From: an uncultured Verrucomicrobiae bacterium | Lineage (GTDB): Bacteria > Verrucomicrobiota > Verrucomicrobiia > Chthoniobacterales > Chthoniobacteraceae | Assembly: GCA_963756185.1 (NCBI GenBank) | Contig: CAVWMS010000001.1 | Location: 11,038 to 75,037 of the forward strand | Reading direction: 5' to 3' | Length of the DNA stretch: 64,000 nucleotides | Shown here: positions 4,119 through 23,570 of the stretch, piece by piece | Layout of the letters: every line of letters starts with the position of its first letter | How positions within the stretch are numbered: the stretch's first letter is position 1 | The notes under the pieces: model-generated | What the model saw: only the letters and a program-made list of their open reading frames with translations | Databases searched by the model: none | What the model was told of the DNA's origin: nothing | Translations under genes and position numbers: made by a program

Positions 4119-4523
4119 CTACGCGTAAAGCAGTGTTTTGAATCCTGCCTGCTCAAAATGACGGTCGGCAGTCAATGCCTCAGCCAGCCCTTCGCGGTCC
4201 ATCACGACAAAGGAAATGCAGTCAGTCAGTGACCATTCCTTGTCTGGACGTGAGATGTAGAAATTGCAGCCGCGTTCGAACAAATCCGAATCCGGCGCGA
4301 CGATTTTTGCGTCGGACTGGTTGCGCAAAGCCGTGAGCACAAGTTCGAAGTTCTTCCGGCCATGGCTTGCTGAGACCGCGTTTGCAAACTCCAACAGAAC
4401 CCACGCAGTTGTCACCAGGGGTATCTTCAACTGGGTGTTCAATTCCATGGCGGATCGGTGATACTGATCGCGTGGATTGACCAGCGCTAGGAAGAACGCC
4501 GTATCGGCAAAGACCGGCTTCAT
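4119..4523 (-). CDS. vapC: PIN-domain toxin (VapC-like).
   Basis: N-terminus MKPVFADTAFFLAL... with a conserved acidic residue pattern and size about 134 aa. Overlaps the upstream small antitoxin-like ORF by 4 nt. Confidence 0.7.
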   Translation of the reverse strand: MKPVFADTAFFLALVNPRDQYHRSAMELNTQLKIPLVTTAWVLLEFANAVSASHGRKNFELVLTALRNQSDAKIVAPDSDLFERGCNFYISRPDKEWSLTDCISFVVMDREGLAEALTADRHFEQAGFKTLLYA

Positions 4524-4741
4524 CCGCGCTTGGGCGTCCCGTATAGGTAGTGATCGTGATTGAGCGAGAGGTCAGGGGGTAGATCATCGGCAGTGCCGGC
4601 AATTTCAAGCAATGCGGCGCCCCATCCGGTCCGGGGCTTTTCCGGCGCGGCAGCTTCCAGTTCGGCCAGCTTCTGCTTCACCAGCCGTAGGTCGGCAGGA
4701 TTCAGCTTTGGCAGTTCGGCGATGATCTCTTGGGTGCTCAT
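4520..4741 (-). CDS. Putative antitoxin / addiction-module component, partner of VapC.
   Basis: About 74 aa, MSTQEIIAELPKLNPADLRLVKQKLAELE, resembling 'putative addiction module component' proteins. Translationally coupled to the PIN gene. Confidence 0.55.
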   Translation of the reverse strand: MSTQEIIAELPKLNPADLRLVKQKLAELEAAAPEKPRTGWGAALLEIAGTADDLPPDLSLNHDHYLYGTPKRG

Positions 4742-4834
4742 TGAGCTCTCTCCGCTGGAATCAATGTGCGGCAACCGCATCTTGCTGTCAATGAAGCCGA
4801 AACCGTGTCTTTCGAGGACACGGCTGTGACCCCA

Positions 4835-5325: not shown

Positions 5326-5706
5326 CTCGAGCGCCGCGCTTCTTGAGCTTGCGGCGCGCGGCCTGGAGGATCATTTCGCGGAAACGGCCCTCGGCCTCGA
5401 GCGTGGCGCCTTTATCGTGAAGGTCGACAATCTTTCCGGTGAGATCGCGGCCTAGGCGGAATTGGCCCAGCCATTTGCCCGCCTCTTCCTGGGCCTGCTT
5501 CCAACTCAGCTATCCATGGGCGGGTCCTCCGGGCGTAAAGATTGCACGCGAACGAAATAGCTGGGCCACCCAGAAGGTGCAAGGGATGAAGCAAAATGAA
5601 GCATCTTTTTGCGCATTACCGCGCAGTCATCATCCGCCGAAAACTTCTCAATCCTCGCGTTTCCCTGGGGAAAGCAGCCCATGAATGGTTGATAGTGTCG
5701 CCAGCG

Positions 5707-5733: not shown

Positions 5734-5885
5734 TCGGAGTTAGGAGGCCTGGAGCACTAGCGGGCGGCTACGGGACATTTTGCTCAGGGGTTGGGACTGG
5801 CCGAGGAGAATTGCATGCGCGATGGGTGCGCGGTAATGGGCAAAAATTTGCTCCATTTTGCTCCGCGGGTTGGAGCGCTTCCGGT

Positions 5886-7250
5886 TCAGAAGGAAAATTC
5901 GATCTGGGGATCTTCGCCATCGTGGGGAGGGAAGAGGGCGAACCATTCCTGGGCGAGTTTCTTCGTTACGGGCTCGCCGGTGACCGTGTGGACGTTTTTG
6001 TATTCGCCGAGGACTTCTTTTGCGCTGGTGTTGCAGTCACGGGCGACGGCGGCGGCGTCGCCGGTTTGGGCGAAACGGTACCCGATGAAGCTGGAGCGGA
6101 GAGCGTTTTTGCGCCAGGGCATTACGGTCCAACGGGAGAGGCTGGCGGTGAAGGTCGAGAGTTGATCCTTGCCGCCGGGAGCGACGTTGCCGCGAGCGCC
6201 GGAGTTGCGCAAGTCGGTCAGCCAGGCGGCGAGGACCTCGGGAATCGGCGCGAGATAGCGGCGGCTGATCTTGCTCTGTTTCTTGTCGACCTCGATGGTC
6301 GACTCGGTCCAATCGAAGGCCTGCCAGTCCAATCGAAGGATGGCGGCGGTGCGCATTCCCGTGAAGGCGCCGATGGCGAGCCAGGGGAGCCATTCGGGCG
6401 CGCGGCGGCGAGTGGCCTTGAGATATGCGAGGAGCTGCGCGGGCGAGTAGATGGGATTGCCGCCCGTGACGACTTTGATTTCCTCGATTCCCTCGGCCGA
6501 GGTGGGAAGGTTTGGCAGAAGCCGCTTCGCGCGGGCCCACCGAAAGAGCGTGACCAGGCTGTCGCGGACCTGCTGCCGGCGGCGCGGGCTGGATTTTACA
6601 AAGCGGAGATTCTTCGGGTCTTTCTTTTTCTTCCTTGGATCGATCCTGAGATTGCGTCCGAGCCCGGCGATATAGAGGTCGAGGTCGGCGGGCGAGATGT
6701 CGGAGAGTTCGCGATTGGCGAAATGGCCGGCGGCGCGGGTCAGATCGTCTTCCATCTGGGCGAGATAGGCGTCCGAGAGGCCCTTGAGCTGCTTGGCCGC
6801 GAGGAAATCCTTCACGGTGTCGGTGAAGGTTTTTCCATGGGTGATGAGAGCGCCGGACGCGATGGCGTAGCGGGTGTAGAAATCGGCAAGCTGGCCGAGG
6901 CTGGCGCCCTTGCACTTTTCCAGGGCGGCGGCGTATTCGCGGCAGGCAACGTCGACCTGGATGCCGAGGGGCTGGAGGGCCTGGCGCGCGGCGAGATAGG
7001 AGCGATGGTCGGAGCCCTCGAGTTCTTCGAGGCGCCCGCTGAGGATTTTGTTGGAGACTTCCTGGAGGCGCCTGCGAAGGGATTCGATGGTGGAGGCCGA
7101 GGCCTGCCGGCGGATGGTGCCGTCCATCCACCAGGTCCGGAGGCGGCCGCCGGCGACGCGGATGAGGGGAAAAGTGACGCGGCCGACGCGCAACTCGGAG
7201 CGTTCGGGCCTTGCGCGATCGAGGAGACGGAGCGGCTGGGGAGACTTCAT
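5886..7250 (-). CDS. int: Tyrosine-type site-specific recombinase / phage integrase.
   Basis: 454 aa. The C-terminal catalytic region has ...GMRTAAILRLDW... (Arg-I box), ...LRSSF... and a Tyr near the C-terminus (VLGEYKNV). Sits next to the tRNA-derived repeat. Confidence 0.75.
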   Translation of the reverse strand: MKSPQPLRLLDRARPERSELRVGRVTFPLIRVAGGRLRTWWMDGTIRRQASASTIESLRRRLQEVSNKILSGRLEELEGSDHRSYLAARQALQPLGIQVDVACREYAAALEKCKGASLGQLADFYTRYAIASGALITHGKTFTDTVKDFLAAKQLKGLSDAYLAQMEDDLTRAAGHFANRELSDISPADLDLYIAGLGRNLRIDPRKKKKDPKNLRFVKSSPRRRQQVRDSLVTLFRWARAKRLLPNLPTSAEGIEEIKVVTGGNPIYSPAQLLAYLKATRRRAPEWLPWLAIGAFTGMRTAAILRLDWQAFDWTESTIEVDKKQSKISRRYLAPIPEVLAAWLTDLRNSGARGNVAPGGKDQLSTFTASLSRWTVMPWRKNALRSSFIGYRFAQTGDAAAVARDCNTSAKEVLGEYKNVHTVTGEPVTKKLAQEWFALFPPHDGEDPQIEFSF

Positions 7251-7579
7251 CCGTGGGCGATGATGGCGCTGTTGATGGCGTCGACGAGGGCGGCGACGGC
7301 GTGCTTGTTGAAGCTGGTCCAGGCCGCGGTTTCGCCGGCGGAGGTGCGGACAATGGCGGTCCAGGAGGGCACGCGGATGAGCAATGCGGCGGCGAGAAGG
7401 AAGCAGGCAATGGCCACGAAGCGGGCAACGTCGCTGCCAAAGAGGCAGGCGGCGCCGATCGCCATGGCAAGGAGGCCGGCCCTGGCGCTGGGATTTTTTT
7501 TCCTGGCGAGCTCGACGGAGCCGATGGAGGCGATGGCGACGGTTTTGCGGCCGGCAACGAGACGGCAGTCGGTGACCAT
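7247..7579 (-). CDS. Small hydrophobic protein between the RHH gene and the integrase.
   Basis: Only the C-terminal part of ORF 7247..7966 looks like real membrane sequence (LLAMAIGAACLF..., FVAIACFLLAAALLI). Start placed at the internal MVTDCRL. Confidence 0.35.
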   Translation of the reverse strand: MVTDCRLVAGRKTVAIASIGSVELARKKNPSARAGLLAMAIGAACLFGSDVARFVAIACFLLAAALLIRVPSWTAIVRTSAGETAAWTSFNKHAVAALVDAINSAIIAHG

Positions 7580-7623
7580 GACGCCCGGGGCGCGGAAGAG
7601 GACGGTCTCGGAGAATTGCTGAT

Positions 7624-7944
7624 TCACGGCTTTCGTTTTCGAAGGGCTTCCCGAATTCGAGAGGGAGTGGCGCGCGGGGTCGGGCCGGGATCGGCAGAGG
7701 GTTCGTTGAGGCGCTGGGCCTCTTCGGAGAGGGGAGCAGTTAAGCGAGAAGGGGCCGCGATAACCGGTTTTTTTTCGCTGATCTTTTGGGCGACGATTTT
7801 GCGGAGTTCGCGGACGACCCATTTTGACCGGGAGCGGTCGTCCTGGGCGGCGAGCTGATCGATTTTGGCCAGCAATTCCCTGGAAAGGGAAATGGTCATG
7901 GTGGTCTGGGTTTCGGCCCTGCTGTGACTCTTCTCGTTTGCCAT
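7624..7944 (-). CDS. Ribbon-helix-helix (CopG/Arc-like) DNA-binding protein, candidate excisionase or regulator.
   Basis: MTISLSRELLAKIDQLAAQDDRSRSKWVVRELRKIV fits the beta-strand plus two-helix RHH pattern. Confidence 0.55.
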   Translation of the reverse strand: MANEKSHSRAETQTTMTISLSRELLAKIDQLAAQDDRSRSKWVVRELRKIVAQKISEKKPVIAAPSRLTAPLSEEAQRLNEPSADPGPTPRATPSRIREALRKRKP

Positions 7945-8168
7945 GGCAACGGGGAGGGTTCAACAAATTTTGTTGTTGGTCAATAATTATTGTTGACTGA
8001 CCGTAAGACGGCTGCTTACGGTGTGGTCATGGCAAATTCCTCTGTTCAAATTTGCGGCGCTCGAGGTGTTTGCGCTGAGGCTGGCTGGCGCGGCGCCGGA
8101 GGCGTAGCTGATTGCTCCAAATTGCTCCACGGAAGGGCGGAGCAGGTGCAAACCCTGATAAATACATG

Positions 8169-8240
8169 CTGCCTCGCTAGGACTCGAACCTAGACAAGCA
8201 GAGTCAGAATCTGCTGTGCTGCCAATTACACCACGAGGCA
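8169..8240 (-). tRNA. tRNA-Gln (anticodon CTG).
   Basis: Reverse complement is TGCCTCG-TG-GTGTAATTGGCAGCAC-A-GCAGATTCTGACTCTGC-TTGTC-TAGGTTCGAGTCCTA-CGAGGCA-G. It has a 7-bp acceptor stem (U1:A72), GTTCGAGTC T-loop and anticodon loop TTCTGAC. CCA is not encoded. Confidence 0.8.
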
Positions 8241-8453
8241 ATCGAGCCCGGGACGTTAAAACGAGGGGGGCGGGGCGTCCACTTCTTTTTGGATTTGGGA
8301 AACCGCTCCCCGGCAGCGGCTTGGGCGGCCGGGACGCGCGCCATCCTTCCCTCTCACCGGCCAGGACCGTGGTTGCGGTCAGGGAAAATCGTGCGGGCGC
8401 AACGGGGCAAATTTAGCATTCCTTTTTCGGTGGGAGTCTTGTGGGATGGAGGC

Positions 8454-10028
8454 ATGTCGGAACAGTCACTTTGGCAACGGTACCAGACCCACCTGGTGCG
8501 TTATCACGGTCTGGGCATCTGGCTGGATATCAGCAGGATACGCTTTGGCGACGGATTTTTCGAAGCAATGACCGCGAAGGCGGAGGAGGCCTTCGCGCGG
8601 ATGAAGGAGCTCGAGGCGGGAGCGATCGCCAACCCGGACGAGGGGAGAATGGTGGGGCATTATTGGCTGCGGAATCCGGCACTGGCGCCCACGGCGCAAA
8701 TCCGCGACGAGATCGAGACGACCCGCGAGCTCATCCTCGGGTTCGCCTCGCAGGCGCACGCGGGGACCATCGCCGGCAGCGGCGGGAAATTCACCGATCT
8801 GTTGCTGATCGGCATCGGCGGCTCGGCGTTGGGGCCGCAGTTCATCTCCGAGGCGCTCGGGACCACGCAGGACAAGATGCGCGTCCATTTCCTGGACAAC
8901 ACGGACCCGGATGGATTCGACCGGGTATTCGAAAAGCTCGGCGGCCTGGAGACGACGCTGACCGTGGTGATTTCGAAATCCGGCGGCACAAAGGAAACGC
9001 GCAACGGCATGCTGGAGACGCAGGCGCGGTACGAGGCGCAGGGGCTCACGTTCGGCAAGCACGCGGTCGCCGTCACCGGCGCGGGGAGCGAGCTGGACAA
9101 GGTGGCGGAAAAAGGGTCGTGGCTGCGCCGGTTCCCGATGTGGGATTGGGTGGGCGGGCGCACGTCGGTGATGAGCGCGGTGGGTCTTGTGCCAATGGCG
9201 CTGCAAGGGCTGGATATCGAGCAATTCCTGGCCGGCGCCGCGGCCATGGACGCGAAGACGCGCGTGGGCAAGATCGAGGAGAACGCCTCGATGCTGCTGG
9301 CGCTGATGTGGTATTTCGCCGGAAACGGCAAGGGGGCGAAGGACATGGTGATCCTGCCGTACAAGGACCGGCTCGTTTTGTTTTCAAAGTATTTGCAGCA
9401 ACTGGTGATGGAATCGCTGGGCAAGGAAAAGGACCTGGCCGGAAACGTCGTGCACCAGGGCATCGCGGTATATGGGAACAAAGGCTCGACCGACCAGCAC
9501 GCCTACGTGCAGCAATTGCGCGACGGCGTGCCGAATTTTTTCGCCACCTTCATCGAAGTGCGCAAGGACCGCGACAGCGCGGCATTCGATGTCGAGCCGG
9601 GCGTGACCAGCGGCGATTACCTGCAAGGATTTCTCCGCGGCACCCGCGCGGCGCTCTATGAAAACGGGCGCGACTCGATCACCATCTCGGTGTCGCACGT
9701 CGATGCCTTCACCGTGGGCGCGATGATCGCGCTGTACGAGCGGTCGGTCGGCTATTACGGTTCGCTGGTCAATATCAACGCGTATCATCAGCCCGGAGTC
9801 GAAGCCGGGAAGAAGGCGGCCGCGCGGATCCTCGCATTGCAGGGGAAAGTGCGCGCGGCGCTGGAGGCGGCCAGCGGCAGGCCGAGGACGGCGGAGCAAT
9901 TGGCCGCGGAGACCGCCTCCGACCCCGAGGACGTATTTCACGTTTTGAATCATCTCGCGGCGAACGCGTCAAATATTGCCGCCCAGGACGCGGATGCCCC
10001 CGGCCAGCAGACGTTTACATTGCGATAA
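8454..10028 (+). CDS. pgi: Glucose-6-phosphate isomerase.
   Basis: [21 protein letters not shown] and other PGI signatures. Start at [11 protein letters not shown]. The in-window ORF 8441..9661 is an alternate-frame artefact. Confidence 0.9.
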
Positions 10029-10034
10029 ATCTAA

Positions 10035-10752
10035 ATGAGCGATACCCCCGCAAGTTTCCAGAACGGGCCCGGCATTCCACTGCCGCGGCTGGTGAATTTT
10101 GTAAAGCAGGTCACGCACGACGTGCGCAATGGCCTCAATGCCATCGATTTGCAAGCCGCCTATATCGGCGAGCTGGCGGGCGACAGCGAAATCGGCCAGG
10201 AAGTGGGAAAATTGAGGCGAATGATCACGCACGTCACGCTCGGGATGCAGGAGCTCTCCGGGCGGTTTGGGGAGTTGAAGGCGTTGAAGGTGGTCTATCC
10301 CGTACAGGAGTTGCTCCAGGGGCTGAAGGAGACAGTCGAGCCGCGAATTCGAGACGCAGGCGAAGCGTGTGGTGTGGGAGATCAAGTTCGAGGATGAGGA
10401 ACTGGAGATGGATTACACCATGCTCACCAACGCGCTGGTCGAGCTGGTGCGCAACGCGATTTATTTTCGTGAGGGCGACCAGGCGATCCGTTTCACCGCG
10501 TGGGACGAGGGGGACAACGCGGTGTTCGAGGTGCGGCAGGCGCGCTCGCAGCCGGCGGGCGATCCGGCGCAATGGGGGCGCGCCCCGCTGATGTCGAGCC
10601 GCCGTGGCGGGTACGGATTGGGATTGTTTTACGTTCGCCGGATTTTGGATACACTAGGTGGCACGCTGGACCCGCGATACAACGCGGAGTCCGGCGAATT
10701 GAGCGTGCGGCTGTCTCTGCCTCTGAAAGGGGCGGGGCCGGCGCGGCTCTAA
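10035..10752 (+). pseudogene. Cytoplasmic histidine kinase (NtrB-like: HisKA + HATPase_c, no sensor domain) interrupted by a +1 frameshift near 10345-10370.
   Basis: H-box THDVRNGLNAIDLQA is in frame 0. The N/G boxes (LVELVRNAIYF..., GGYGLGLFYVRRI) are in frame +1. Frames join at ...EPRI/FETQAKRVVWEIKF. Confidence 0.6.
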
Positions 10753-10755
10753 AGA

Positions 10756-12143
10756 ATGAAGAAAATAGTTGTCATCGACGATGAGCGGCCGGTGTTGGCC
10801 GACGCTGCAGGCGCTGCTCGAGCGGCATGGGTATTCCGTGCAACTGGCCGGGACTGCGAGCGCGGGCCTCGGGCTCATCGAGAAGACGCAGCCGGAGCTG
10901 GTGCTCCTGGACCTGGGGCTGCCGGATGCGGCCGGGCCTCGAGACGCTGGCCAGGATCAGGCAGGACCATCCGGACATCGCGGTCATCATCATCACGGCG
11001 CAGGACTCGCTCAGCAATGCCATCGAGTCGATCAAGCTGGGCGCGTTCCATTTCATCTCGAAGCCCTACGCGCCCGAGGAATTGCTCAACGTCATCGTGC
11101 GCGCGCTCGAGCAGCGCGACCTGGTAAAGGACCGGGACCAACTGATGGCGAAGACGGCGGAGCTGGCGCGCCAGCTCGAGGAGGCGCAGATGCAGCTCGC
11201 GCCGACGGTCACCAGCCGGCGCATGCGCGAAATCCACGAACTGGTGGCGCGCGTCGCGCCGAGCGACGCAAATGTGCTCATTACCGGCGAGAGCGGCGTG
11301 GGCAAGGAAGTGGTGGCGAACCAGATTCACCGGCTCAGCACCCGGCAGGCCGGCCTGATGGTGAAGTTGAATTGCGCGGCCTTTCCGCAGAACATGATCG
11401 AGAGCGAGTTGTTCGGCTATGTGAAAGGGGCGTTCACGGGCGCGGCGAATGATTTTCCGGGGATGATCCACGAGGCCGCGGGCGGCACGCTCTTCCTGGA
11501 CGAGATCGCGGAGATGCCGCCGGATTTGCAGACCCGATTCCTGCGGGTGCTGCAGGACCGCGAGTATCGCTCTCTCGGCAGCACGAAAACGGTGAAGGCC
11601 GATTTCCGGCTCGTCGCGGCCACCAACCGGCCCGTCCAGGCGGCGCTGGCCGGCGGCGCGCTGCGGCAGGATTTGTATTACCGGCTCAAGACGTTCGAAA
11701 TGGAGATACCCCCGCTGCGGGAGCGGCGCGAGGATATTCCCGCGCTGGCGCTGCAATTCGCGCGCCGGTTCGCCGCGCAGATGAACAAAGGCGAGCCGCG
11801 CTTTTCGCCGGAGGCGTTCCGGGTGTTGATGGATTACAATTGGCCTGGCAACGTGCGCGAGCTGCAAAACGCGGTCGAGCACAGCATCGTGCTGTGCGAA
11901 AGCGGCTCGGTAATGCCGAAACATCTCCCACGCGAGCTGCGCCTGCCGGCGATCCTGCAGGAGGCCGCGGTGCAATCGATCAACGGCGGGGGGAACCTGA
12001 AGCTGGACGTGCGGGAACGCGAGGCGATCCTGCAAGCCCTGGCGCAATGCCACGGCAATAAAAAGAAGGCGGCGGCCGTGCTCGGCATCCACCGTCCGAC
12101 CTTGTACTCGAAAATGAAACGGTACGGGATCGAATTGAAGTGA
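10756..12143 (+). pseudogene. Sigma-54-dependent response regulator (NtrC family: REC + AAA+ + Fis-type HTH) with two +1 frameshifts in the receiver domain, at about 10795 and about 10925.
   Basis: MKKIVVIDDERPVL is in frame 1. TLQALLERHGYSV...LVLLDLGLPD is in frame 2. GLETLARIRQDHPDIAVIIITAQDS and onward is in frame 0. Downstream it is intact: GESGVGKEVVA, GAFTGA, ESELFGY, NWPGNVRELQN and a C-terminal HTH. Confidence 0.6.
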
Positions 12144-14966
12144 GCAGAAAGTTGCAGGCAGCGTCCCGGGCGGCGGCGGTCGATCAAACCGCGAAGACGG
12201 ATGCCCTTTCGCGGCACCGTGAGAAAGTGCTCGAGCACGCGGAGGCGCAACTGGCGCTGCAAGGCAAGGAAAGCCCGGCGGAGCTGCTGGCGCTTTACAA
12301 GCGGTTCCTGAAAATCGAGAACCACCGGCTGCGGCTCAAGCACAACGCGGGGGAAGGCGGGCGGGAAATCGCGCATCAGCGGGCCAGCCTGGTCGATATC
12401 GTACTGCGGCATTTGTTTGACGGCGCGGCGGCAAAGGCCGGGAGACGTCGATTTGCGCGAACTGTCGCTCGTGGCGATCGGCGGTTACGGGCGGGACGAG
12501 CTGAATCCTTACAGCGACGTGGATATCATGTTCCTCACTCGGCAAAGGGAAAGGAAGTGCCGTCGGAGTTGAACGAGGTCATCCAGATGATCCTCTACAT
12601 GTTATGGGACATCGGATTCAAGGTGGGTCATTCCACGCGGTCGATCCCCGGGGCGATCAAGCAGGCCAACATCGACATGCTTTCGAAGACGTCGCTGCTC
12701 GAGTCGCGCCACGTGGCGGGCAGCCGGGAGTTATTCGACGATTTCCGGCGGGAATTCGTGAAGCGCTGCGTGCACGGCTACGAGAAGGAATACATCCTGC
12801 AGCGGTTCGAGAACCAGACGGAGCGGCACGCGAAGTTTGGCGAGACGGTCTATATGCAGGAGCCAAACGTGAAGAACGGATGCGGCGGGCTGCGGGATTA
12901 CCAGAACCTGCTGTGGATCGCATTTTTCCGCGAGGAGATTGCCACCACGGCGGAGCTGGTGCAGCGGAAACTGCTTTCGGACATCGAGCGGCGCAGGCTG
13001 GATCGCGCCTACGACTTCCTGCTGCGGGTGCGCACGGAGCTTCACTATCTGAACAAGCGCGGCACGGACGTACTCAGTCTCGGTTTCCAGGGACAGGTGG
13101 CCAATAACTTCCGTTACCCGCAGAAGAACATCCTCAGGCGCACCGAGGCGTTCATGCGGGAGTATTACTGGCACGCGCGGGACCTCTATAACATCACCGA
13201 GATGGTGGTCGAGCGGCTGGGACATGGGATCGTCGACGCGAAGCCGGCGGGCCTGCTGCACTTGTTCGGCAACGGCAAGAAGCAGAGTGGAGTATTTTGA
13301 CGGATTTTATTCCGAGGGTGGATTTGATTTACGCGGAATCGCGCGACGTGTTCACCCAGGATCCCTACCGGATGATGCGCGTTTTCCAGCACGCGCAGCA
13401 GCGGCATCTGCGGCTTTCGTCGGAGCTGCAGCAGTTGATCCGGCGCAAGCTGCCGCATGGTGGGCCGGACATTCCAATACTCGCGGGCGGCGCGCGAGAC
13501 ATTCCAGGCCATCCTGTCGCGCAAAGGGGAGGTGGGGCGGGTGCTGCGGATGATGCACCAGGTCGATTTTCTGGGGAGATACATTCCGGAGTTCGGCGAC
13601 CTGACCTGCCTGGTGCAGCACGAGTTTTTCCACCGGTACACGGCGGATGAGCACACGCTGGTGTGCATCGACAAGCTGGACTCGCTGATCGATACCACCA
13701 ATCCCAAGCTGCAGGATTACCGGATATCTGTTCCAGAAGCTGGAGGACCCGTACGTGCTCTATCTCGCGCTGCTGCTGCACGACACGGGCAAGGCGACCG
13801 GGGCCCGGTATCACGCGGAGGCGAGCGCGCTTTACGCGCAGCGGGTGGCGGCGCGGCTGCAACTTAGCTCGGAGCGCCGAAAGGCGCTGATCCTGCTGGT
13901 GGACAATCACATGACGCTTTCGAACGTCGCGCAGCGGCGCAACCTGGACGACGCCGCCACGATCCAGGAGTTCGCGGACGTGGTGAAGACGCAATCGAAC
14001 CTCGACGCGCTGATGCTGCTGACTTTGGCCGACGGGCAGGGGACAGGGGACGAGAATTGGTCGGACTGGAAGGAATCGCTCGTCTGGCAGTTGTACCGCT
14101 CGACCACGCAGTTTCTCGAGGATGGCGCTTCGTTTTTCCGCCAGCGCCGCATCGAGCGCGAGGAGCTGCGCAAGCGGGTCGGCGCGCTTTTGCCGAAGGA
14201 TTTCGAGGAGGAGGTCGAGGCGCATTTTCAATACATGCCGGATTACTATTTCCAGACCAATCCGGCGAACGACATCGCGGCGCACGTCCGGCTCTTCCGC
14301 GCATTCCTCGAGCGGGAATCGAAGGGGCTCGAGAACGCGCTCACGCCCGTGGTCAAGTGGGTGCCGCATGCCGACCAGGGGCATACGGAAATGTGGATAT
14401 GCACCTGGGACCGCAAGGCGCTGCTCACGCGCATCGCCGGCTCCCTCTCCGTGGCGCACCTGAACATCCTGAGCGCGGATATCTTCACGCGCGGGGACAG
14501 CCTGGCGCTGGATTTCTTCCGCGTGTGCGACACGAAATTCCAGGCGGTGACGGACCAGCGGGACATCGCGGCGGTCGAGAAGATGCTCAAGCAGGCGCTC
14601 TCGCAGGAGGATTTCGATTTTCATCCGCTGCTGCAAAAGGCGAAGAAGCGCCCGGGATTTCATTTGTCGCAGGAGCTCGATTTTCCGACACGGATATGGA
14701 TCGATAACGGCGCGCACCCGGTATACACATTGGTGGACATCCAGACGCCGGACCGGTTGGGGTTGCTGTATGACTTGCTCAGGGCATTCGCGGATTCGCG
14801 GGTGAACATCGTCCTTTCGCGCATCACCACGGAGAAAGGCGCGGCGATAGACAGCTTCTATGTCACCGACGTGGATGGCAGAAAGATCCGCGACCAGGAA
14901 CATATTACGGAGATACAAAAGGCATTGAAGCAGGCCGCCCCCGGCGTGCCGCTGAAGGAAAGCTGA
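12140..14966 (+). pseudogene. glnD: [Protein-PII] uridylyltransferase / uridylyl-removing enzyme GlnD, interrupted by at least 5 frameshifts at about 12420, 12540, 13290-13330, 13480 and 13740.
   Basis: The nucleotidyltransferase motif ELSLVAIGGYGRDELNPYSDVDIMFL sits in a different frame from its flanks. The HD-domain ([19 protein letters not shown]...[13 protein letters not shown]) and C-terminal ACT segments lie in three different frames. Five ORF pieces tile the gene. Confidence 0.6.
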
Positions 14967-14973
14967 GTCTGTC

Positions 14974-16548
14974 TTAGTTATTTGGCGTGCCGGTTTTTAC
15001 CTCGATGATGTCGTGGGGGGCGGATTCCTTCTGGCCGGCGGGGGTGATTCGGGCGAAGCGGGCGCGGCGGCGCAGCTCGACCAGGTTCGGGGCGCCCAGA
15101 TAGCCCATGCCGGATTGGACGCCGCCGACGAGTTGGGTCATCACGGCATCGAGCGACGGGGAAACCTCCTTCAAGGCCTCGACCCCTTCGGCGGCCACCT
15201 TGCGCGTGGCATCCTTTGTATGGCCGTAGCGCGCGGCGGAGCCCGCCTTCATGGCGGCCGGGCTGCCCATGCCGCGGTATTGTTTATAGGGCTTGCCGTT
15301 GATCTCGATGATCTGGCCCGGGGCTTCCGGGCATCCGGCCAGCAGGCCGCCGCAGATCACCGCGTGCGAGAGCGTGAGCGCCTTTACGATGTCGCCGCTC
15401 TTGGCGATGCCGCCGTCGGCGATGATGCTCACGCCGGCCTCTTGCGCGGCCTTGCCGCAGACGTAGAGCGCGGTCAATTGCGGAATACCGACGCCGGCGA
15501 CAATGCGCGTGGTGCAAATCGATCCCGGCCCCTGTCCCACCTTGATCGCGTCGGCGCCGCAGCGGGCGAGGTACTCGACAGCGGAGGCGCTGGTCACGTT
15601 GCCCGCGATGATCGGCAACTCCGGGAACGCGGCGCGAATGAGCCGCACGGTGTCGCCGACGCCCTTGCTGAAGCCGTGCGCGGTGGAAATCGCGACCGCA
15701 TCGACACCGCGGTCCACCAGCGCGCCGACGTGCTGGACGATGCGATTCTGGTCGAGTTCGCCGGTCGAGTTGCGGGTCGCGGAGACTGCCGCGCCGCAGA
15801 TGAGCCGGAAATTCGCGTCGCGGGCCGGCTTGAGCGGCGCGGCCTTTTCCTGGCTGATGCGCTCGATGTCGCTGAGGGTAAAGAGCCCGCGCAGCCGGTC
15901 CTGGTCATCGACCACCAGCAGCTTGTGGATGCCGATGTGCTCGTTGAAAAACTTGTCCGCGCGGGCGATGGGGTCGGGCTGCAATTCCCTTTCGGCGATG
16001 GTCTGGACCTGCTCGCGCGGCATCATCGCGTCGCTGACCTTGCGCGCGGCGTAGCGCGGGCGCACCACGTGGCCCGGCAGCAGGCCGAGCAATTTCCCGT
16101 GATCGTCCACGATGGGAAAGGTGCTGAAGGCAAAACGCCGTTCATCGATGAGCGCCAGCACGTCGCCGATGAATTGATCGGGCGACACCTTGATCGGCTC
16201 CTGGATGAGGCCATGGACGTGATATTTTACCCGGGTCAGCTCGGAGAGCTGCTGCCGGTCGGACATATTGTAATGGATGAGCCCGAGGCCGCCGTTGAGC
16301 GCCATGGCGATGGCCATGCGCGATTCGGTGACGGTGTCCATGTCCGCCGAGATGATGGGGATTTGGAGATGGAGCCGTTCGGCGAGCGCGGTTTCGAGGT
16401 TTGAGTCGCGTGGGAGAATTTCCGAGTACTGCGTGGCGAGCGTCACGTCGTCGTAGGTGAGCGCCACGCCCTGCTGCGCGGGAAAAAAGGAATCCGCCGG
16501 CTGATAGAAGGCGTCGTCAACAGCGGCGCATCGAGAGGAGTCTGCCAT
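14974..16548 (-). CDS. guaB: Inosine-5'-monophosphate dehydrogenase.
   Basis: CBS pair plus catalytic loop IIAGNV...[16 protein letters not shown]...GSICTTR, at 524 aa. Confidence 0.9.
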
Positions 16549-16960: not shown

Positions 16961-17854
16961 ATGAGGACTTCCCTCGACTTGAGCGGCTTGACTTCGCTGA
17001 TGAGGCGAACGGCTGGCCGCAGGGGGGTCATCATCGGGCTCGTGGATGGGCCTGTGGATATGGGAAATCCGAATTTCGCAACTGAGGCGATTCGCGAAAT
17101 GGCCATGCATTCGCCAGGTCAGACGGGCGCCTGTAATTTTCCCCAGAGTAATTCGTGCCGGCACGGCACATTCGTGGCTGGCATTCTCGCCGCCAAGCGC
17201 GGCTCCGATGCGCCCGCGATATGTCCCGGATGCACTGTGCTGTTGCGCCCGATCTTTTCGGAGGAAGAATCATCGGATTCAATGCCCGCAGCTTCTCCGC
17301 GCGAACTTGCCGACGCCATCGTGGAGGTAGTGCAGGCAGGAGCCAATATTGTGAATCTCAGTTGTCAACTGCCGCGTGGTTCGGCAGGTGCGGAACGAGA
17401 CCTCGACGACGCCTTCAATTACGCCGCATCGCGCGGCGCAATTTGCGTAGCCGCGGCGGGCAACGAAGGATCGCTCGGAAGTTCCGCCATCACAAGGCAT
17501 CAATGGGTGATTCCGGTGGCCGCCTGTGACCGAACCGGCCATCCTACGGAAGGATCGAACCTGGGACATTCGATAGGCCGCCGCGGGTTGCTTGCTCCCG
17601 GCGACAGCATTCGCAGCCTCGGGGCCGAGCACGAAGACTATCCCGTGAGCGGCACCAGCGCGGCTGCGCCCTTTGTTGCCGGCGCGGCGGCGTTGCTTTG
17701 GTCGGAATTTCCCGAAGCAAAAGCGGTGGATGTCTGGCAGGCTCTCAACCTGATCCAAGTTTTGCGGCGCACCAGTGTGGTGCCGCCCCTGCTTGATGCA
17801 TGGCGATCGTATCAATGGCTGAATTCGCATTTTGGCAGGACACAAACCCTATGA
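16961..17854 (+). CDS. Subtilisin-like serine protease (peptidase S8) consisting of the catalytic domain only, with no signal peptide.
   Basis: Asp-box GVIIGLVDGPVD, His-box HGTFVAGILAA and Ser-box GTSAAAPFVAGAAALL. The N-terminus is hydrophilic. Confidence 0.8.
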   Translation: MRTSLDLSGLTSLMRRTAGRRGVIIGLVDGPVDMGNPNFATEAIREMAMHSPGQTGACNFPQSNSCRHGTFVAGILAAKRGSDAPAICPGCTVLLRPIFSEEESSDSMPAASPRELADAIVEVVQAGANIVNLSCQLPRGSAGAERDLDDAFNYAASRGAICVAAAGNEGSLGSSAITRHQWVIPVAACDRTGHPTEGSNLGHSIGRRGLLAPGDSIRSLGAEHEDYPVSGTSAAAPFVAGAAALLWSEFPEAKAVDVWQALNLIQVLRRTSVVPPLLDAWRSYQWLNSHFGRTQTL

Positions 17855-18069
17855 AAAAGGGAGGCAGAGCAACTGTATCCGAGCCCAGCAGTCCTCAGCC
17901 GCACGTCGTTCGCCTGCCTGGCTGGATCGTGAAGGAGGAGGTTGGACTCGGAGACGTCATCAAACGGGTCACCCGCGCGATTGGGATTCCGACCTGCCCG
18001 GGCTGCCAGCGTCGCGCCGACACACTTAACCGCTGGGTAAAAATCACCCCTGGCGACCACAAAACATAA
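17851..18069 (+). CDS. Small protein (73 aa) translationally coupled to the subtilase through an ATGA overlap.
   Basis: MKKGGRATVSEPSS...IPTCPGCQRRADTLNRWVKITPGDHKT. No recognisable domain. Confidence 0.45.
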   Translation: MKKGGRATVSEPSSPQPHVVRLPGWIVKEEVGLGDVIKRVTRAIGIPTCPGCQRRADTLNRWVKITPGDHKT

Positions 18070-18101
18070 ACACCAAAAATAATAACAAGAAAACCGACAT
18101 C

Positions 18102-19031
18102 ATGACAACAGCCACCGAGACCAATGAACCCGCCGACGCCGTCCAGGCAGCCAGCGACTCCAACCCGGTTACAGCCGCCGCGCCGGCAACTGCGCTTCCA
18201 AGAGCAGTTTCGCCCCCGGGCTCGTGTCCAACCTGCGCCACGGCGCCGGCTGGCGCCCGGGCAAATTCCTACGTCTGGGCAATTGGAAAGATCGAGCCAC
18301 AATTCATGGGCATTGCGGAGGAGAAGGAATACGCGCAGGTCGTCGGTGGTATTGAAACGGAGGGTCTTACCAAGCGCCAGGTCTTCTCCAAGGTGCTCAA
18401 AAATCCAAATTATCATTATTTAATGCGGGATGGTCTCGCTTGGATCATGAGAATTGGCGGGCAGGAGGTCTATGAGTTAAAGCCGCGCTACGAAAGCGAT
18501 TTTCATCTCCTCGTAGAGTCGTTTCAACCTGAGGTCGACTCAAACGCGCTTGACGCCGTTATTGGGACGAACGTCGGGATGCCGCGTCAAGGGCTACGCG
18601 GCGCACCGTTGCTGCCCGTCGTGAGAGTCCACCAGATTTATACCTTTACTAAAGAACATTTGATTAAGGGAATTCCAGGCGATAAAAAATCCCATACAAA
18701 AGAGTTCAACGCCTCTGCCCACGAGGTGCTCAATCGGATTCTGGCCTTTACGGAAAATCTCGGCAACACCGATTGCGACCGCGCGAAGAACTGGATCGCG
18801 TTGCGCAGTCCGTACCTTTACAAAATCGTGGCGGAATGTCATGGACGCGACTTGGAGTTGGCCAGGATAGAGTGCCGCCCCCACCCGCTTTCCGGAGCCC
18901 GCAACCTTGTCGACCTATTGCTCCGATTTGAGTCGCGAGGAAAGGAGTTTGGCGAGAAATATCGCGTTATTCTGGACATGACTGACGCCCTCCCGTTCCA
19001 AGTTTCCCCATTTGAGCGTTACTACGCTTAA
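18102..19031 (+). CDS. Hypothetical protein (309 aa) in the subtilase / cysteine-rich protein operon.
   Basis: Long ORF with lower GC. Ala/Pro-rich N-terminus with CPTC. No recognisable domain. Confidence 0.55.
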   Translation: MTTATETNEPADAVQAASDSNPVTAAAPATALPRAVSPPGSCPTCATAPAGARANSYVWAIGKIEPQFMGIAEEKEYAQVVGGIETEGLTKRQVFSKVLKNPNYHYLMRDGLAWIMRIGGQEVYELKPRYESDFHLLVESFQPEVDSNALDAVIGTNVGMPRQGLRGAPLLPVVRVHQIYTFTKEHLIKGIPGDKKSHTKEFNASAHEVLNRILAFTENLGNTDCDRAKNWIALRSPYLYKIVAECHGRDLELARIECRPHPLSGARNLVDLLLRFESRGKEFGEKYRVILDMTDALPFQVSPFERYYA

Positions 19032-19035
19032 TAAT

Positions 19036-20247
19036 ATGAACATGAGAATACCGCAATTCACCGCTGAACTGGCGCTGTCTTCCCCACGAAACTGGACTAA
19101 AGGGTTCGAAGTCGCCGAGTACGGCCCCAAAAGATCGACCATGCACTATCGCGCCGCTGGCTTTCGGAAGGCAGGGCAAGGCTCGCGGGGGGTCGTGCCG
19201 GCGCAGGACGGATGTGTTACATTGGGTGGGCAGATTTATTGCCCGGTGGTAGTAGGAAACCCGACGGCGTGTCCTCCCGGCACTTTCGGAATACCCCCAA
19301 ATTGCCAGTCCCTGCCCGCTTTTCCGCATTGTCCAATCGGGCAAACGAATTGTAATCCATTTGGAATACTACCTACGATGTGTACGAACCTTCAGACGGA
19401 TTCGAACAATTGCGGAAGCTGTGGAAACCAATGTAAGAACGGCCAGACGTGCCAAGACGGAGCTTGCGCCTGTCCAGGCGGGAAACCCCTCAATAGCTTG
19501 CAGAATTGCGGAACCTGCGGGCGCACCTGCACCGCCCCCTCGGGTGGGACCGCTTCCTGTGCTAACGGAAGCTGTAACTGGGTCTGCAACAGTGGCAGCG
19601 GCTACAGTAACTGCACCGGCCACAGCTGTACGAATACACAATCTGACCGGAACAACTGCGGCTCCTGTGGGTACATCTGTTCACAACACGTACCACAGAA
19701 TTCGACCGCGACGGGATGTACTAACGGACATTGCAACTGGCAGTGCAACAGCGGGTACACGGACCAAAGTGGGAAATGCATTCAAACGTGTCCGCAAGGC
19801 GATACCAGTTGCGGCGGGGCCTGCGTGAATCTTCAAACTGACCGGAACAACTGCGGCTCCTGTGGGTATAACTGTTCACAACACGTCCCGCAGAATTCGA
19901 CCGCGACGGGATGTACAAAGGGGCATTGCAACTGGCAGTGTAACAGCGGCTTTGTGGACCAAAACGGAAAGTGCGTTCGATCGTCAGGAGGCTGCGCTCA
20001 GGGTTACGAGAGCTGCGGAAGCGGTTGTTGTCCTGACGGAACGTGCTGTGACACCGTCTGCATGACATCTTCCGACGATACATGCTGCGGCAATGGGAAT
20101 GTTGCCACCGGGGATCAAATCTGCTGCGGCGGTGCCGGCTGTTCGACTGACGGTTGCTGCCAGACCGAGCTTGGATATACGTGCTGTGATCCCTGGGTGT
20201 GCTGCGGTGACGGCACTTGCGCTCCTGATAGCGATTCATGCGATTAA
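19036..20247 (+). CDS. Cysteine-rich protein with multiple Stig1-like D-x-x-N-C-G-x-C-G-x-x-C repeats. Paralog 1.
   Basis: LQTDSNNCGSCGNQC, TQSDRNNCGSCGYIC and LQTDRNNCGSCGYNC. N-terminal MNMRIPQFTAELAL with no Sec signal. About 17% Cys. Confidence 0.65.
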   Translation: MNMRIPQFTAELALSSPRNWTKGFEVAEYGPKRSTMHYRAAGFRKAGQGSRGVVPAQDGCVTLGGQIYCPVVVGNPTACPPGTFGIPPNCQSLPAFPHCPIGQTNCNPFGILPTMCTNLQTDSNNCGSCGNQCKNGQTCQDGACACPGGKPLNSLQNCGTCGRTCTAPSGGTASCANGSCNWVCNSGSGYSNCTGHSCTNTQSDRNNCGSCGYICSQHVPQNSTATGCTNGHCNWQCNSGYTDQSGKCIQTCPQGDTSCGGACVNLQTDRNNCGSCGYNCSQHVPQNSTATGCTKGHCNWQCNSGFVDQNGKCVRSSGGCAQGYESCGSGCCPDGTCCDTVCMTSSDDTCCGNGNVATGDQICCGGAGCSTDGCCQTELGYTCCDPWVCCGDGTCAPDSDSCD

Positions 20248-20277
20248 CAAAAATAGCTCCTTACTACTCCCGTTGAT

Positions 20278-22098
20278 ATGAAGATGACGGTCCCTGGATT
20301 TTTTGCCGAGTACGGTCTCGAGGGTGCCACCCGCCATTACCTGACGCTTGGCTCGGAGGAAACAGGGGGTCCCGGTTGGGATCTTGCTATGGCGACGAAC
20401 GTCTACCGAACGATGGCCGGCATTTCTGAGGCCGGCAATGTCTACGATCCCACGAGGCCAGCCGTGCGCCGCGATGGTCGTGGTTCGGGCTGCGTCGGCG
20501 GACCACCCTATATGCCATGCCTCAAGCAGGGAAGTCAGCCGGTATGCGCCGATGGGATTTGGGGAGGTGCCGGTGCTCCGCAGGGAACCCTCTGCTGGTC
20601 GCAATATCCGGAGATGGGCTACCAGGGGATTTGCAGTGGTGGCGGCGCGCCCGGAGGGAGAGGCGGCCTACCTCCCTCCCCTGGGTATTGCGACCCGTGC
20701 CCAACGGGGACAACTCTTTGCATCTCCGGAAACACCGGAGTTTGCTGCCCGGGCGTAGCGGAGTGTGAGAGAGGGAACTGCCACTGCCCCAATGGGGAGG
20801 TATTCTGCAACTCACAGTGTGTAGACACCCAGACCGACCCGAGGAACTGCGGGTTCTGCGACAAAGCGTGCCAGGCTGGACAGGTCTGCTGCAGCGGTTC
20901 TTGCACTGACATCAGCAGTGATAGTAACAACTGCGGAGCTTGCGGTAGCACATGTCAGCAGGGGGACGGAACGTGCTGCGGCGGTCGATGCTGTCCGGAG
21001 CGTTACGGGACCTGTTGTAACGGCCAGTGCTGCCCGGACCCCTTCTTTTGCTGCGGTAGTTCCTGCTGTTCCAACGGAGAGCTCGGCGGTGAGCCGCAAG
21101 CCTGCTGCAACGGCAGCTGCCAGCCCCAGGACGAGCAGCACTGCGGTTTTTCCTGCCAATCGTGCACAGGAGGCCAAACCTGCCAGCTTGATCCCTCGCA
21201 GGGCTATCACGGTTATGCATGCCTTTGCTCAAGTGGGGAAACACTCAGCAATGGTCTGTGTTGCCCATCAGGGCAGACAAACTGCAACGGCAATTGCGTA
21301 GCCCCGCCGGGCGCCGGCGCTCTTAGTAGCAACAGCAATTTCATGCTCTCGAACAATTGCGTGAGTATAGCGGGTCCGAATGGCAGTCTGAAAGTATCAT
21401 TGCTGGCTGGAACGGAGGATTTGGTTTCAGAAAATGGATTCTCGTTTCAGCTGAACGGGTTTCCTCCACCGCTGACGCCTACGTCACCGAATGGGTGCCC
21501 TTCCTCTGCTGATTTTTGCTGCATGGCTCCAACTGGAGTTTGCATAATGCAATATATTATCCGAGTTAGTGGGAACAATGTTTCTCCTTGGATTCAATAC
21601 TTTCAAAACAGCGGAGTGGAAAATCCGAACAACGACCCGTTTGCCACGCTGCCTGCCGGGAAGGCGAACACCCTTCCTGCCGGGTGGGCTCTCGAAATCA
21701 CATTGGAAAACGACGAGAATGGGAATGTCGATGGGATAATCCTTAGCGTCATAGACAACACCGGGCACACGGTTGGCTGCGCTGACCAAGGGCAGACAGG
21801 TTCCTGCCAACAAATGCCGATGCCGGTGGATCCCAATTCTGGCCTGCCACTCTTGTTCGCAAATCTAGCTTTTTCGGCAGTCGCGGTCGCTCTCCCGGGG
21901 AGTAGCGAGGCTAAGTTCACGTCTGGGGGCGGATGCATCACCTACGAAGTTTCAGAGGGGCAATTATGTGAGACGCAGGATAATTGCACGAACTTCGATG
22001 CGGGTACAACTGAGCAGTCAAACGCTTCCTACGGTGCCTTGAGCGCCACGTGTGGCTCCTCCTTGAGTCAATCCGTAACCACTTCGGATGCGTCCTAG
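20278..22098 (+). CDS. Cysteine-rich Stig1-like repeat protein with a C-terminal domain shared with the 22395 gene. Paralog 2.
   Basis: TQTDPRNCGFCDKAC and ISSDSNNCGACGSTC. The C-terminal ...GFSFQLNGF...ITYEVSEGQLC...YGALSATCGSSLSQSV aligns with the C-terminus of paralog 3. N-terminal MKMTVPGFFAEYGL. Confidence 0.65.
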   Translation: MKMTVPGFFAEYGLEGATRHYLTLGSEETGGPGWDLAMATNVYRTMAGISEAGNVYDPTRPAVRRDGRGSGCVGGPPYMPCLKQGSQPVCADGIWGGAGAPQGTLCWSQYPEMGYQGICSGGGAPGGRGGLPPSPGYCDPCPTGTTLCISGNTGVCCPGVAECERGNCHCPNGEVFCNSQCVDTQTDPRNCGFCDKACQAGQVCCSGSCTDISSDSNNCGACGSTCQQGDGTCCGGRCCPERYGTCCNGQCCPDPFFCCGSSCCSNGELGGEPQACCNGSCQPQDEQHCGFSCQSCTGGQTCQLDPSQGYHGYACLCSSGETLSNGLCCPSGQTNCNGNCVAPPGAGALSSNSNFMLSNNCVSIAGPNGSLKVSLLAGTEDLVSENGFSFQLNGFPPPLTPTSPNGCPSSADFCCMAPTGVCIMQYIIRVSGNNVSPWIQYFQNSGVENPNNDPFATLPAGKANTLPAGWALEITLENDENGNVDGIILSVIDNTGHTVGCADQGQTGSCQQMPMPVDPNSGLPLLFANLAFSAVAVALPGSSEAKFTSGGGCITYEVSEGQLCETQDNCTNFDAGTTEQSNASYGALSATCGSSLSQSVTTSDAS

Positions 22099-22394
22099 AA
22101 TTCTACAAGCCAGTTTTGGCGTGCCTATGTTGGGCTTCGAAATCGCCCCCTATTGCAGCATTAAAAAAGGAATAAACCGTGTTCAATCCACTTGCTCCCG
22201 TCTGGCGAGACACCGCCATTGGTCACTACACGTATTTTACGAATGGAGAGGAAAATGCCTCCCCTATTTGAAGGATGCCCAATTGCACGAAAACAAAGGT
22301 TACTATGACAATTACCGCGGAGAACAATGAACTGACAAGCGCCCTCCAGTCGGACGCCAAAATCACACACTAAGACGACCATTAGAACAATTAT

Positions 22395-23570
22395 ATGAAC
22401 CTGCCCCAATTTACGGCCGAGTTTGCGCTTTACCGGTCAAAGAATGTCTACCGGGAAAATGGCGCTGCCGCCGAAATGACGGATTGGGACCCGCAAATAC
22501 TACCGGCGGGACCGTCGCAGCATCCTGGTGGCGGTTTTGGTGGCGGTCCTCAGGTCCATTGTGTGGCACCCTATTCACAATGTGGAAATGTCTGCAAGGA
22601 TCTGAGTACGGATGCCGCTAACTGCCATGAGTGCGGCAATGTTTGCGCAGATGATATGTGCTGCATAGGGGGTAGATGCACGACGGTTGACACCAATTAT
22701 GATAGTAATAACTGTGGAGACTGTAATAGCAAATGCCCTTTGATTGCGCCATTTTGCTGTAGCGGTGAATGCCTCACCATCGAAATGGCTGAAAAGTGCC
22801 AGAATTGTGGCACCAATTGCCCGACCGGGTATTACTGCGGTGGCGATGGCTACACATGCATCGCATGCCCGGCGGGACCAGATCCCATACAATCGCCGGG
22901 AAGCAATGTTAATTATATAATGTACAACTCATGCTCGCCCATTGACCAGCTGAGTTATTCTATGTATGTCAATAAGGATCTCGTCTCGGGATCGGGCGGT
23001 TTTTCTCTGCAATTCAATAATTATACAAAGGCGACGGGTTACGAAAATACGGTCATTCAGCTTATTTTCCACGTAAGCGACCAAATTTTGGCCCATATAC
23101 AATATCCGGGAGGCACCCCTGATGGAATTGATCATGATTGGCAGAAGAGCTTTTCAAAAATTACATTGGAGAACGATACGTTGCCCGCTCATTACACATT
23201 GGGGGTTGCTCTCAGTAATGATGGCAACGGGAATATTAATGGAGCTGCCTTTACGGTTGAAGATAATAATGGGAAGAGTTACACAATCTCTGCCCCTGCT
23301 TCTGCCTTTCCTTCCGGGAAGTATCTGTATCCCATTTCCGAATTCCAAGCGAATCTTGTCGGGTATGGCGGGGGCGCGACCGCGAGCTTTTCTCCCGGAG
23401 GAAAGGCAACAATAACTTACTCCTCGGAGGGACAACTATGCGTAGAAGGGGCTAATCCAAATTGTACAGGCAGTGATCTTATAACGGATGAAAAAGCGAA
23501 TACCGGATATGGAGAATTGAGCAGTTGCTGTGGTGGGTCTTTAACGCAGCCGGTATTTATTACTTCTTGA
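22395..23570 (+). CDS. Cysteine-rich Stig1-like repeat protein, paralog 3. Lower GC.
   Basis: MNLPQFTAEFAL N-terminus, LSTDAANCHECGNVC and YDSNNCGDCNSKC. The C-terminal ...GFSLQFNNY...ITYSSEGQLC...YGELSSCCGGSLTQPV is paralogous to the 20278 protein. Confidence 0.65.
   Translation: MNLPQFTAEFALYRSKNVYRENGAAAEMTDWDPQILPAGPSQHPGGGFGGGPQVHCVAPYSQCGNVCKDLSTDAANCHECGNVCADDMCCIGGRCTTVDTNYDSNNCGDCNSKCPLIAPFCCSGECLTIEMAEKCQNCGTNCPTGYYCGGDGYTCIACPAGPDPIQSPGSNVNYIMYNSCSPIDQLSYSMYVNKDLVSGSGGFSLQFNNYTKATGYENTVIQLIFHVSDQILAHIQYPGGTPDGIDHDWQKSFSKITLENDTLPAHYTLGVALSNDGNGNINGAAFTVEDNNGKSYTISAPASAFPSGKYLYPISEFQANLVGYGGGATASFSPGGKATITYSSEGQLCVEGANPNCTGSDLITDEKANTGYGELSSCCGGSLTQPVFITS

Follow-up and report, generated by a model that had tools for sequence, protein, structure and literature searches.

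Ten single-base indels in a kinase, sigma-54 regulator and glnD unit of an uncultured Chthoniobacteraceae bacterium, and their probable origin in a local consensus error

The three-gene unit and its ten indels

The stretch of DNA analyzed here (64,000 nucleotides; hereafter the window) comes from an uncultured bacterium of the Chthoniobacteraceae and carries, on its + strand, three adjacent genes encoding a minimal histidine kinase, a sigma-54-dependent response regulator and GlnD, the [protein-PII] uridylyltransferase; all three are interrupted by single-base insertions or deletions (indels), whose origin is the subject of the present work. The three genes are preceded by pgi (glucose-6-phosphate isomerase; 8454..10028, + strand) and followed by guaB (IMP dehydrogenase; 14974..16548, − strand), and the order pgi-kinase-regulator-glnD is common to many Chthoniobacterales genomes, including that of Chthoniobacter flavus Ellin428. 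The nearest genome segment, L001, belongs to a SPRUCE metagenome-assembled genome (MAG) and is 82.8% identical to the window at the DNA level over 8403-14959; it was used as a reference together with a second intact relative, L002 (78.7% nucleotide identity). L001, L002 and the locus L017 are among those in which glnD directly follows the kinase and regulator genes.

The kinase gene (10035..10759) encodes, once corrected for the indels, a protein of 240 aa, the same length as its L001 orthologue, with which it shares 71% amino acid identity; the HATPase_c domain is recognized by Pfam. The regulator gene (10756..12143) encodes, once corrected, 461 aa, as does its L001 orthologue (88% identity), and the protein matches the Pfam families Response_reg, Sigma54_activat and HTH_8. 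The third gene, glnD (12140..14966; 940 aa once corrected), is a true member of its family, since the corrected protein scores 662 bits against the NCBIfam model TIGR01693 (cut-off 519.4) and is 91% identical, across 100% of its length, to the orthologue P0001, also of 940 aa, in which Pfam finds the NTP_transf_2, GlnD_UR_UTase, HD and ACT domains. The GTG start of glnD overlaps the regulator stop in the window (GTGA), and an ATGA overlap joins the end of the kinase gene to the start of the regulator gene in L001 and L002 and, after correction of the indels, in the window too; in view of these overlaps, the three genes are predicted to be one conserved, translationally coupled unit. In proteobacteria, glnD is not known to be coupled or linked to a two-component pair in this way.

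Frame changes were read from three-frame translation and from a codon-usage hidden Markov model (HMM), both of which reveal a coding signal that switches between the + strand frames across 10035-14966. The underlying indels were placed by nucleotide alignment to L001 and L002, and a frameshift-aware protein-to-DNA aligner, run with the L001 proteins as queries, provided an independent second method. Ten single-base indels, nine insertions and one deletion, were located between 10344 and 13726 (~3.4 kb), two of them in the kinase gene, two in the regulator gene and six in glnD; the nine larger events appear as gaps at the same sites against both relatives and were all recovered by the protein-to-DNA alignment.

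In the kinase gene, the first indel (10344) is an additional C or G within CCGCGAA, whereas the second, an additional G in the GGGGCGGGG run at 10731-10738, is seen as a gap against L001 and alters the kinase tail only: when one G is removed, the terminal PARL* becomes RRGSKE* (RRSSKE* in L001) and the TGA/ATG overlap with the regulator (ATGA) returns. The kinase is thus encoded in three frames (10035-10343, 10345-~10734 and ~10736-10759). Both regulator frameshifts lie within the receiver domain, and consist of a G or C doubled in TTGGCCG at 10797 and of a G doubled in GCGGCC at 10930. In glnD, a C is doubled in AGGCCGGG at 12438, and the only deletion of the set follows at 12535/12536, where a G is absent between T and C (the relatives read TTCCTGCA); the four remaining insertions are an A between two Gs at 13286 (CAGAGTGG versus CAGGTGG in L001), a T breaking a G5 run at 13319 (GAGGGTGGA versus GAGGGGGA), an A between C and T at 13457 (CCGCATGG versus CCGCTGG) and an A or T at 13726 (GGATATCT, with GGGTTCT and GGATCCT in the relatives). 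As encoded in the window, glnD therefore falls into seven frame segments, its final 1.24 kb being free of indels. The indels are present in the deposited record, since the broken open reading frame (ORF) at 12140..13300 is found, 100% identical, as the public protein P0121 (386 aa).

A preliminary description of this DNA had reported at least eight frame changes in about 5 kb, a slight undercount; all the junctions that it listed are confirmed by the alignments against L001 and L002, that at 13290-13330 holding two. Its counts for the regulator (two) and for glnD (five or more) agree with ours, while the single change assigned to the kinase has to be raised to two, the second being that in the G-run at 10731-10738.

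Confinement, gene condition and indel spectrum

Over the whole window, the codon-usage HMM, which detected 144 of 150 single indels simulated in clean genes, reports one frameshift outside the patch in ~42 kb of confidently coding sequence, that is ~0.02 per kb, as compared to 3 per kb inside it; regions called noncoding, notably a low-GC island at 16.9-23.7 kb, lie outside this scoring and contain long uninterrupted ORFs. The probability of finding nine of ten frameshifts within 3.4 kb of ~52 kb is, as a rough bound, ~3e-8 (ten of eleven when the tenth indel is counted). The one outside frameshift is that already ascribed to a G-run of livK: the LivK-like binding-protein gene (38935-40087, + strand) has lost one base in a gggggaa (G5A2) run at ~39150-39158, the frame switches 350 nt ahead of the first frame's stop, and the two pieces cover positions 1-39 and 46-339 of Peripla_BP_6; this is a classic homopolymer error. 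A further frame switch, at ~7666 on the − strand, turned out to be the boundary of two adjacent genes (RHH and DUF6232) and no frameshift.

The flanking genes are intact, as had been stated, and both are matched end to end by NCBIfam models. The pgi gene is aligned by tblastn with L001 as one in-frame segment pair (87% amino acid identity), scores 816 bits against NF010696 (cut-off 671; model positions 1-514 of 528) and has no frameshift by the frameshift-aware protein-to-DNA alignment; guaB is a single ORF of 524 aa covering positions 1-449 of 450 of TIGR01302. The confinement of the indels to three functionally coupled genes, which had been the most conspicuous point of the preliminary description, is thus real; as an argument for biology it is weak, because any patch of 3.4 kb covers two to four neighboring genes and these three form one operon. 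The reverse argument, from a patch that takes no account of gene borders, is not significant either: the indels do not span a significantly smaller range than the three genes themselves (our own estimate for nine uniformly distributed points, P ~0.17).

Apart from the indels, the three genes look fully selected. When the ten indels are undone, ORFs of 240, 461 and 940 aa are obtained, equal in length to the L001 orthologues, with the ATGA and GTGA overlaps restored; the corrected frames of kinase, regulator and glnD contain no internal stop, and neither a nonsense codon, nor a multi-base deletion, nor a lost start or stop was found in them. Branch-specific changes were counted with L002 as outgroup: inside the patch, 52 amino acid and 248 nucleotide changes are unique to the window and 46 and 223 to L001, the corresponding figures outside the patch being 46 and 243 for the window and 43 and 216 for L001. 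The estimated excess of substitutions inside the patch is therefore −3 nt, an excess of at least 30 being rejected with P=0.025 and one of at least 45 with P=0.002; moreover, the replacement-to-synonymous ratio of the window branch does not differ from that of L001. None of the 211 GlnD columns in which at least 95% of 57 orthologues agree deviates in the window, and in the regulator only 2 of 183 highly conserved columns do so, no more than in L001 or L002. Substitution excess, replacement ratio, conserved residues and nonsense codons thus give no sign of relaxed selection on the window branch, and the elevated ratio of nonsynonymous to synonymous substitution rates (dN/dS) or additional nonsense changes that had been proposed as a check of gene decay were looked for, inside against outside the patch, and not found.

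The spectrum of the indels is strongly asymmetric, with nine insertions to one deletion, all of a single base (P=0.011 against 1:1). Five of the insertions double an adjacent G or C or lengthen a short run (10731-8, 10797, 10930, 12438 and perhaps 10344), while the other four (13286, 13319, 13457 and 13726) add an A or T between unlike bases or within a G5 run; in the sole deletion, a G flanked by T and C is lost. The A/T insertions, about half of the events, are not slippage in runs. Spontaneous indels of bacteria concentrate in runs, bacterial pseudogenes show a deletion bias, and mutation-accumulation data of E. coli indicate about ten substitutions for each indel; on all three counts (runs, direction, and ratio of substitutions to indels) the patch shows the opposite.

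Origin of the indels

The genes pgi, kinase, regulator and glnD were compared in 67 related Chthoniobacterales loci, 61 of which are free of any frameshift in the four genes. Among the six affected loci, four belong to long-read MAGs, three of them Nanopore-only; the short-read MAGs are all clean, with the exception of L039, which has a single event. The three Nanopore loci, all from Microflora Danica (MFD) MAGs, contain 25 insertions and 3 deletions (L067), 23 and 4 (L064), and 14 and 4 (L061), while L021, whose contig is named in the style of a long-read assembler, contains 6 and 0; pooled, these four loci give 68 insertions to 11 deletions. Since in the long-read MAG loci the housekeeping gene pgi is affected as well, at 4-6 events per kb, their indels are errors and not biology. 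The insertion bias of the window's patch matches theirs, a comparison of error signatures that is based on four long-read loci from relatives. None of the 61 clean loci is shifted at the sites of the window, so that the identical frameshifts in related genomes, whose presence would have suggested artefacts of annotation, are absent from them. Error hot spots seemingly common to the window and to the long-read MAGs (near aa 394 and at aa 520-529) did not involve the same bases when examined by nucleotide alignment. As a separate observation, the MAG MFD04580.bin.2.12, to which both L029 and L067 belong, has glnD twice, at different loci on separate contigs: the first locus is clean (64% identity to the query by tblastn), the second error-laden (85%), which suggests that two Chthoniobacteraceae populations, differing widely in coverage, were binned together.

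On the basis of these data, the ten indels are very likely a local consensus error in a long-read assembly, the genes being intact in the organism. This explanation is favored because the genes are otherwise intact, because their corrected lengths are those of the orthologues, and because the insertion-biased spectrum is that of the long-read MAGs: indeed, nothing but small indels is found in genes which are otherwise orthologue-perfect, and indels of this spectrum are typical of error-laden long-read relatives and nearly absent from short-read assemblies. The only other frameshift of the window, the homopolymer deletion in livK, also speaks in its favor. The public protein P0121 is encoded on a single contig of 1,069,142 bp that is present, unannotated, in NCBI and ENA, a profile like that of proteins from MFD MAGs (e.g. 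P0175, on the contig of L067); this would point to a long-read MAG as the probable source of the window. The MAGs of the MFD-LR catalogue come from metaFlye assemblies that received a single round of Medaka and no correction by short reads (PMC12313526), and Nanopore-only assemblies retain frameshifting indels below ~40x coverage (Sereika et al. 2022, PMC9262707). According to the mechanism proposed, the contig would derive from a long-read, probably Nanopore-only, metagenome assembly, in which a stretch of ~3.4 kb (10344-13726) would have escaped effective polishing while polishing elsewhere in the window was good; the cause of the locality might be a locally reduced usable coverage or mapping quality, or competing reads of another strain.

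Several observations weigh against this explanation, most of them related to the locality, for which it gives no reason. The ~42 kb of coding sequence around the patch that could be scored are clean, and the errors of the comparison MAGs are spread across the whole locus, whereas those of the window are confined to 3.4 kb; no repeats involving the patch were found within the window, and its borders are marked neither by a step in identity to L001 or L002 nor by an anomaly of GC content or skew. About half of the indels lie outside homopolymers, unlike the usual residual errors of the R10.4 type, the literature on residual Nanopore errors stressing homopolymers (PMC9262707). No second copy from the same species is at hand for comparison: in the databases searched, the full corrected GlnD retrieved nothing above 91% identity, a fragment lying between two shift sites retrieved the window's own ORF (100%) and then 87%, and a fragment across three shift sites nothing above 81%. 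These protein searches yielded no sequence of the same species from JGI data, and the species-representative collection does not include the source genome.

The main alternative, a genuine and very recent pseudogenization of the kinase/sigma-54 regulator/glnD operon in which one lesion made the remainder neutral, is improbable. It would agree with the presence of the ten frameshifts in the public sequence, where they disrupt the frames and are not artefacts of reading, with their restriction to one conserved, translationally coupled three-gene unit between a clean pgi and a clean guaB, and with a spread statistically consistent with indels placed uniformly along the three genes (P ~0.17, as estimated above). 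Neutral decay should, however, have left other traces. Ten indels accompanied by approximately zero additional substitutions correspond to fewer than ~3 substitutions for each indel, as opposed to the expected ~10; the excess of −3 nt, the 0 of 211 changed GlnD columns and the absence of stops argue against relaxed selection, as do a replacement-to-synonymous ratio unchanged from L001 and the retention of every highly conserved residue of GlnD; and no nonsense codon, multi-base deletion or lost start or stop accompanies the frameshifts. Nor is the spectrum that of natural indels, the 9:1 excess of single-base insertions reversing the deletion bias and half of the events lying outside runs, and the same spectrum is found in Nanopore MAGs, where it extends to pgi at the density given above. 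Of the two explanations put forward in the preliminary description, the error-prone stretch of assembly is therefore retained, while the decay of a regulatory cascade is disfavored by intact selection, by the 9:1 ratio and by the long-read-like spectrum.

If the indels were nonetheless real, a burst of ten frameshifts, nearly all +1, would just have silenced the operon without any accompanying substitutions, which we consider still less probable; this would imply a localized insertion-prone event, such as one error-prone repair tract of ~3.4 kb, rather than a gradual decay, and would mean that a soil verrucomicrobium has lost the control of PII by uridylylation.

An artefact at the level of the population, in which a minority strain or divergent co-assembled strains produced a low-coverage or mixed path with a poor consensus over real polymorphism at the locus, would account for local errors in a clean contig, and microdiversity is known to affect MAG recovery in soils (PMC12313526). 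It is nevertheless very unlikely: the divergence on the window branch, which is equal inside and outside the patch, together with the absence of an identity step at the borders, indicates that patch and flanks come from the same lineage. Programmed recoding, by ribosomal frameshifting or transcriptional slippage across the shifts, has nothing in its favor but the possibility of stitching the frames together and can be dismissed, the ten sites having no common motif, being mostly non-slippery, requiring both +1 and −1 shifts and being conserved in none of the 61 clean relatives.

If the ten indels are a consensus error, inferences on nitrogen regulation in this organism should regard the three genes as intact. 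More generally, the case suggests that contigs of long-read MAGs, though clean elsewhere, can contain unpolished patches of kilobase scale which mimic a decaying pathway, and that the two readings can be separated even without reads, by looking for excess substitutions and lost conserved residues, by considering in which direction the indels go and in what context they lie, and by comparing short-read with long-read relatives.

Other features of the window and comparison with known systems

The low-GC island mentioned above (16961-23570, + strand; GC 0.50-0.57 versus ~0.63) has an atypical codon usage and encodes an S8 subtilase (16961..17854), an ORF with PatG_D and PatG_C domains (18102..19031) and three large cysteine-rich proteins (~19039-20247, 20278-22098 and 22395-23570) with Stig1-like 'TDxNNCGSCG' repeats. 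The first and third of these begin with PQFTAE(L/F)AL and the second has the degenerate version PGFFAEYGL; the island could represent a cluster for secreted cysteine-rich proteins, or one resembling those for ribosomally synthesized and post-translationally modified peptides, with a PatG-type protease. On the − strand, a tRNA-Gln(CTG) gene (8168-8240) adjoins the region of an RHH/CopG-like gene (7624..7944), a DUF6232 gene (7247..7612) and a 454-aa ORF (5886..7250) with a weak, sub-threshold match to phage integrases (E=0.0015); a 42-nt inverted repeat (5590-5631 / 5821-5862) lies beyond the latter, and the region 5886-8240 may mark the border of an integrated element. Two stretches scored as noncoding by the HMM contain a candidate small toxin-antitoxin-like pair, recognized by visual inspection of the translations (4122-4834, − strand), and a lone ORF of 140 aa flanked by the liv-type transporter genes and the next operon (42920-43339, + strand).

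When the three-gene unit is compared to the enterobacterial GlnD-PII-NtrB/NtrC cascade, the resemblance lies in a true GlnD adjoining a two-component pair and in a regulator that, like the enterobacterial NtrC, combines a receiver, a sigma-54 AAA+ domain and a Fis-type helix-turn-helix. The kinase is different, as its 240 aa contain HATPase_c alone in Pfam, without a PAS domain, and its NCBIfam matches are weak and generic (CreC, VanS, PhoR), with none to any NtrB model. The regulator has its best NCBIfam matches in AtoC, the PEP-CTERM regulator and NtrC, each below its own cut-off, and scores higher against the first two than against NtrC, for which 369 bits are reached of the 558.6 required by TIGR01818 and 292 of the 620 required by NF008176. 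The labels NtrB-like and NtrC-type given to the two proteins in the preliminary description are therefore justified by architecture and context, and not by family membership. No gene for PII, amtB or glnA was noticed in the window, although no search was aimed at them.

As regards the indels, several frameshifts in adjacent, linked genes whose motifs are still recognizable recall the pseudogene clusters of bacteria that have recently become host-restricted or shifted their niche, of which Mycobacterium leprae, Shigella and Sodalis are examples; in genuine decay, however, dN/dS is raised, indels are biased toward deletion, and nonsense mutations and larger deletions occur as well, none of which is seen here. 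The likeness is closer to Nanopore-only, Medaka-polished MAGs (PMC9262707, PMC12313526), whose residual indels show up as fragmented gene calls in tests of the IDEEL type and in which single-base indels alone break otherwise perfect ORFs, and in particular to the loci L061, L064 and L067 of the MFD Nanopore MAGs, which belong to the same family and share with the window the insertion-biased spectrum and a source contig of megabase scale; the window departs from the MFD MAGs in that its errors are confined to 3.4 kb of 64 kb, and from the literature, with its stress on homopolymers, in that half of them fall outside such runs.

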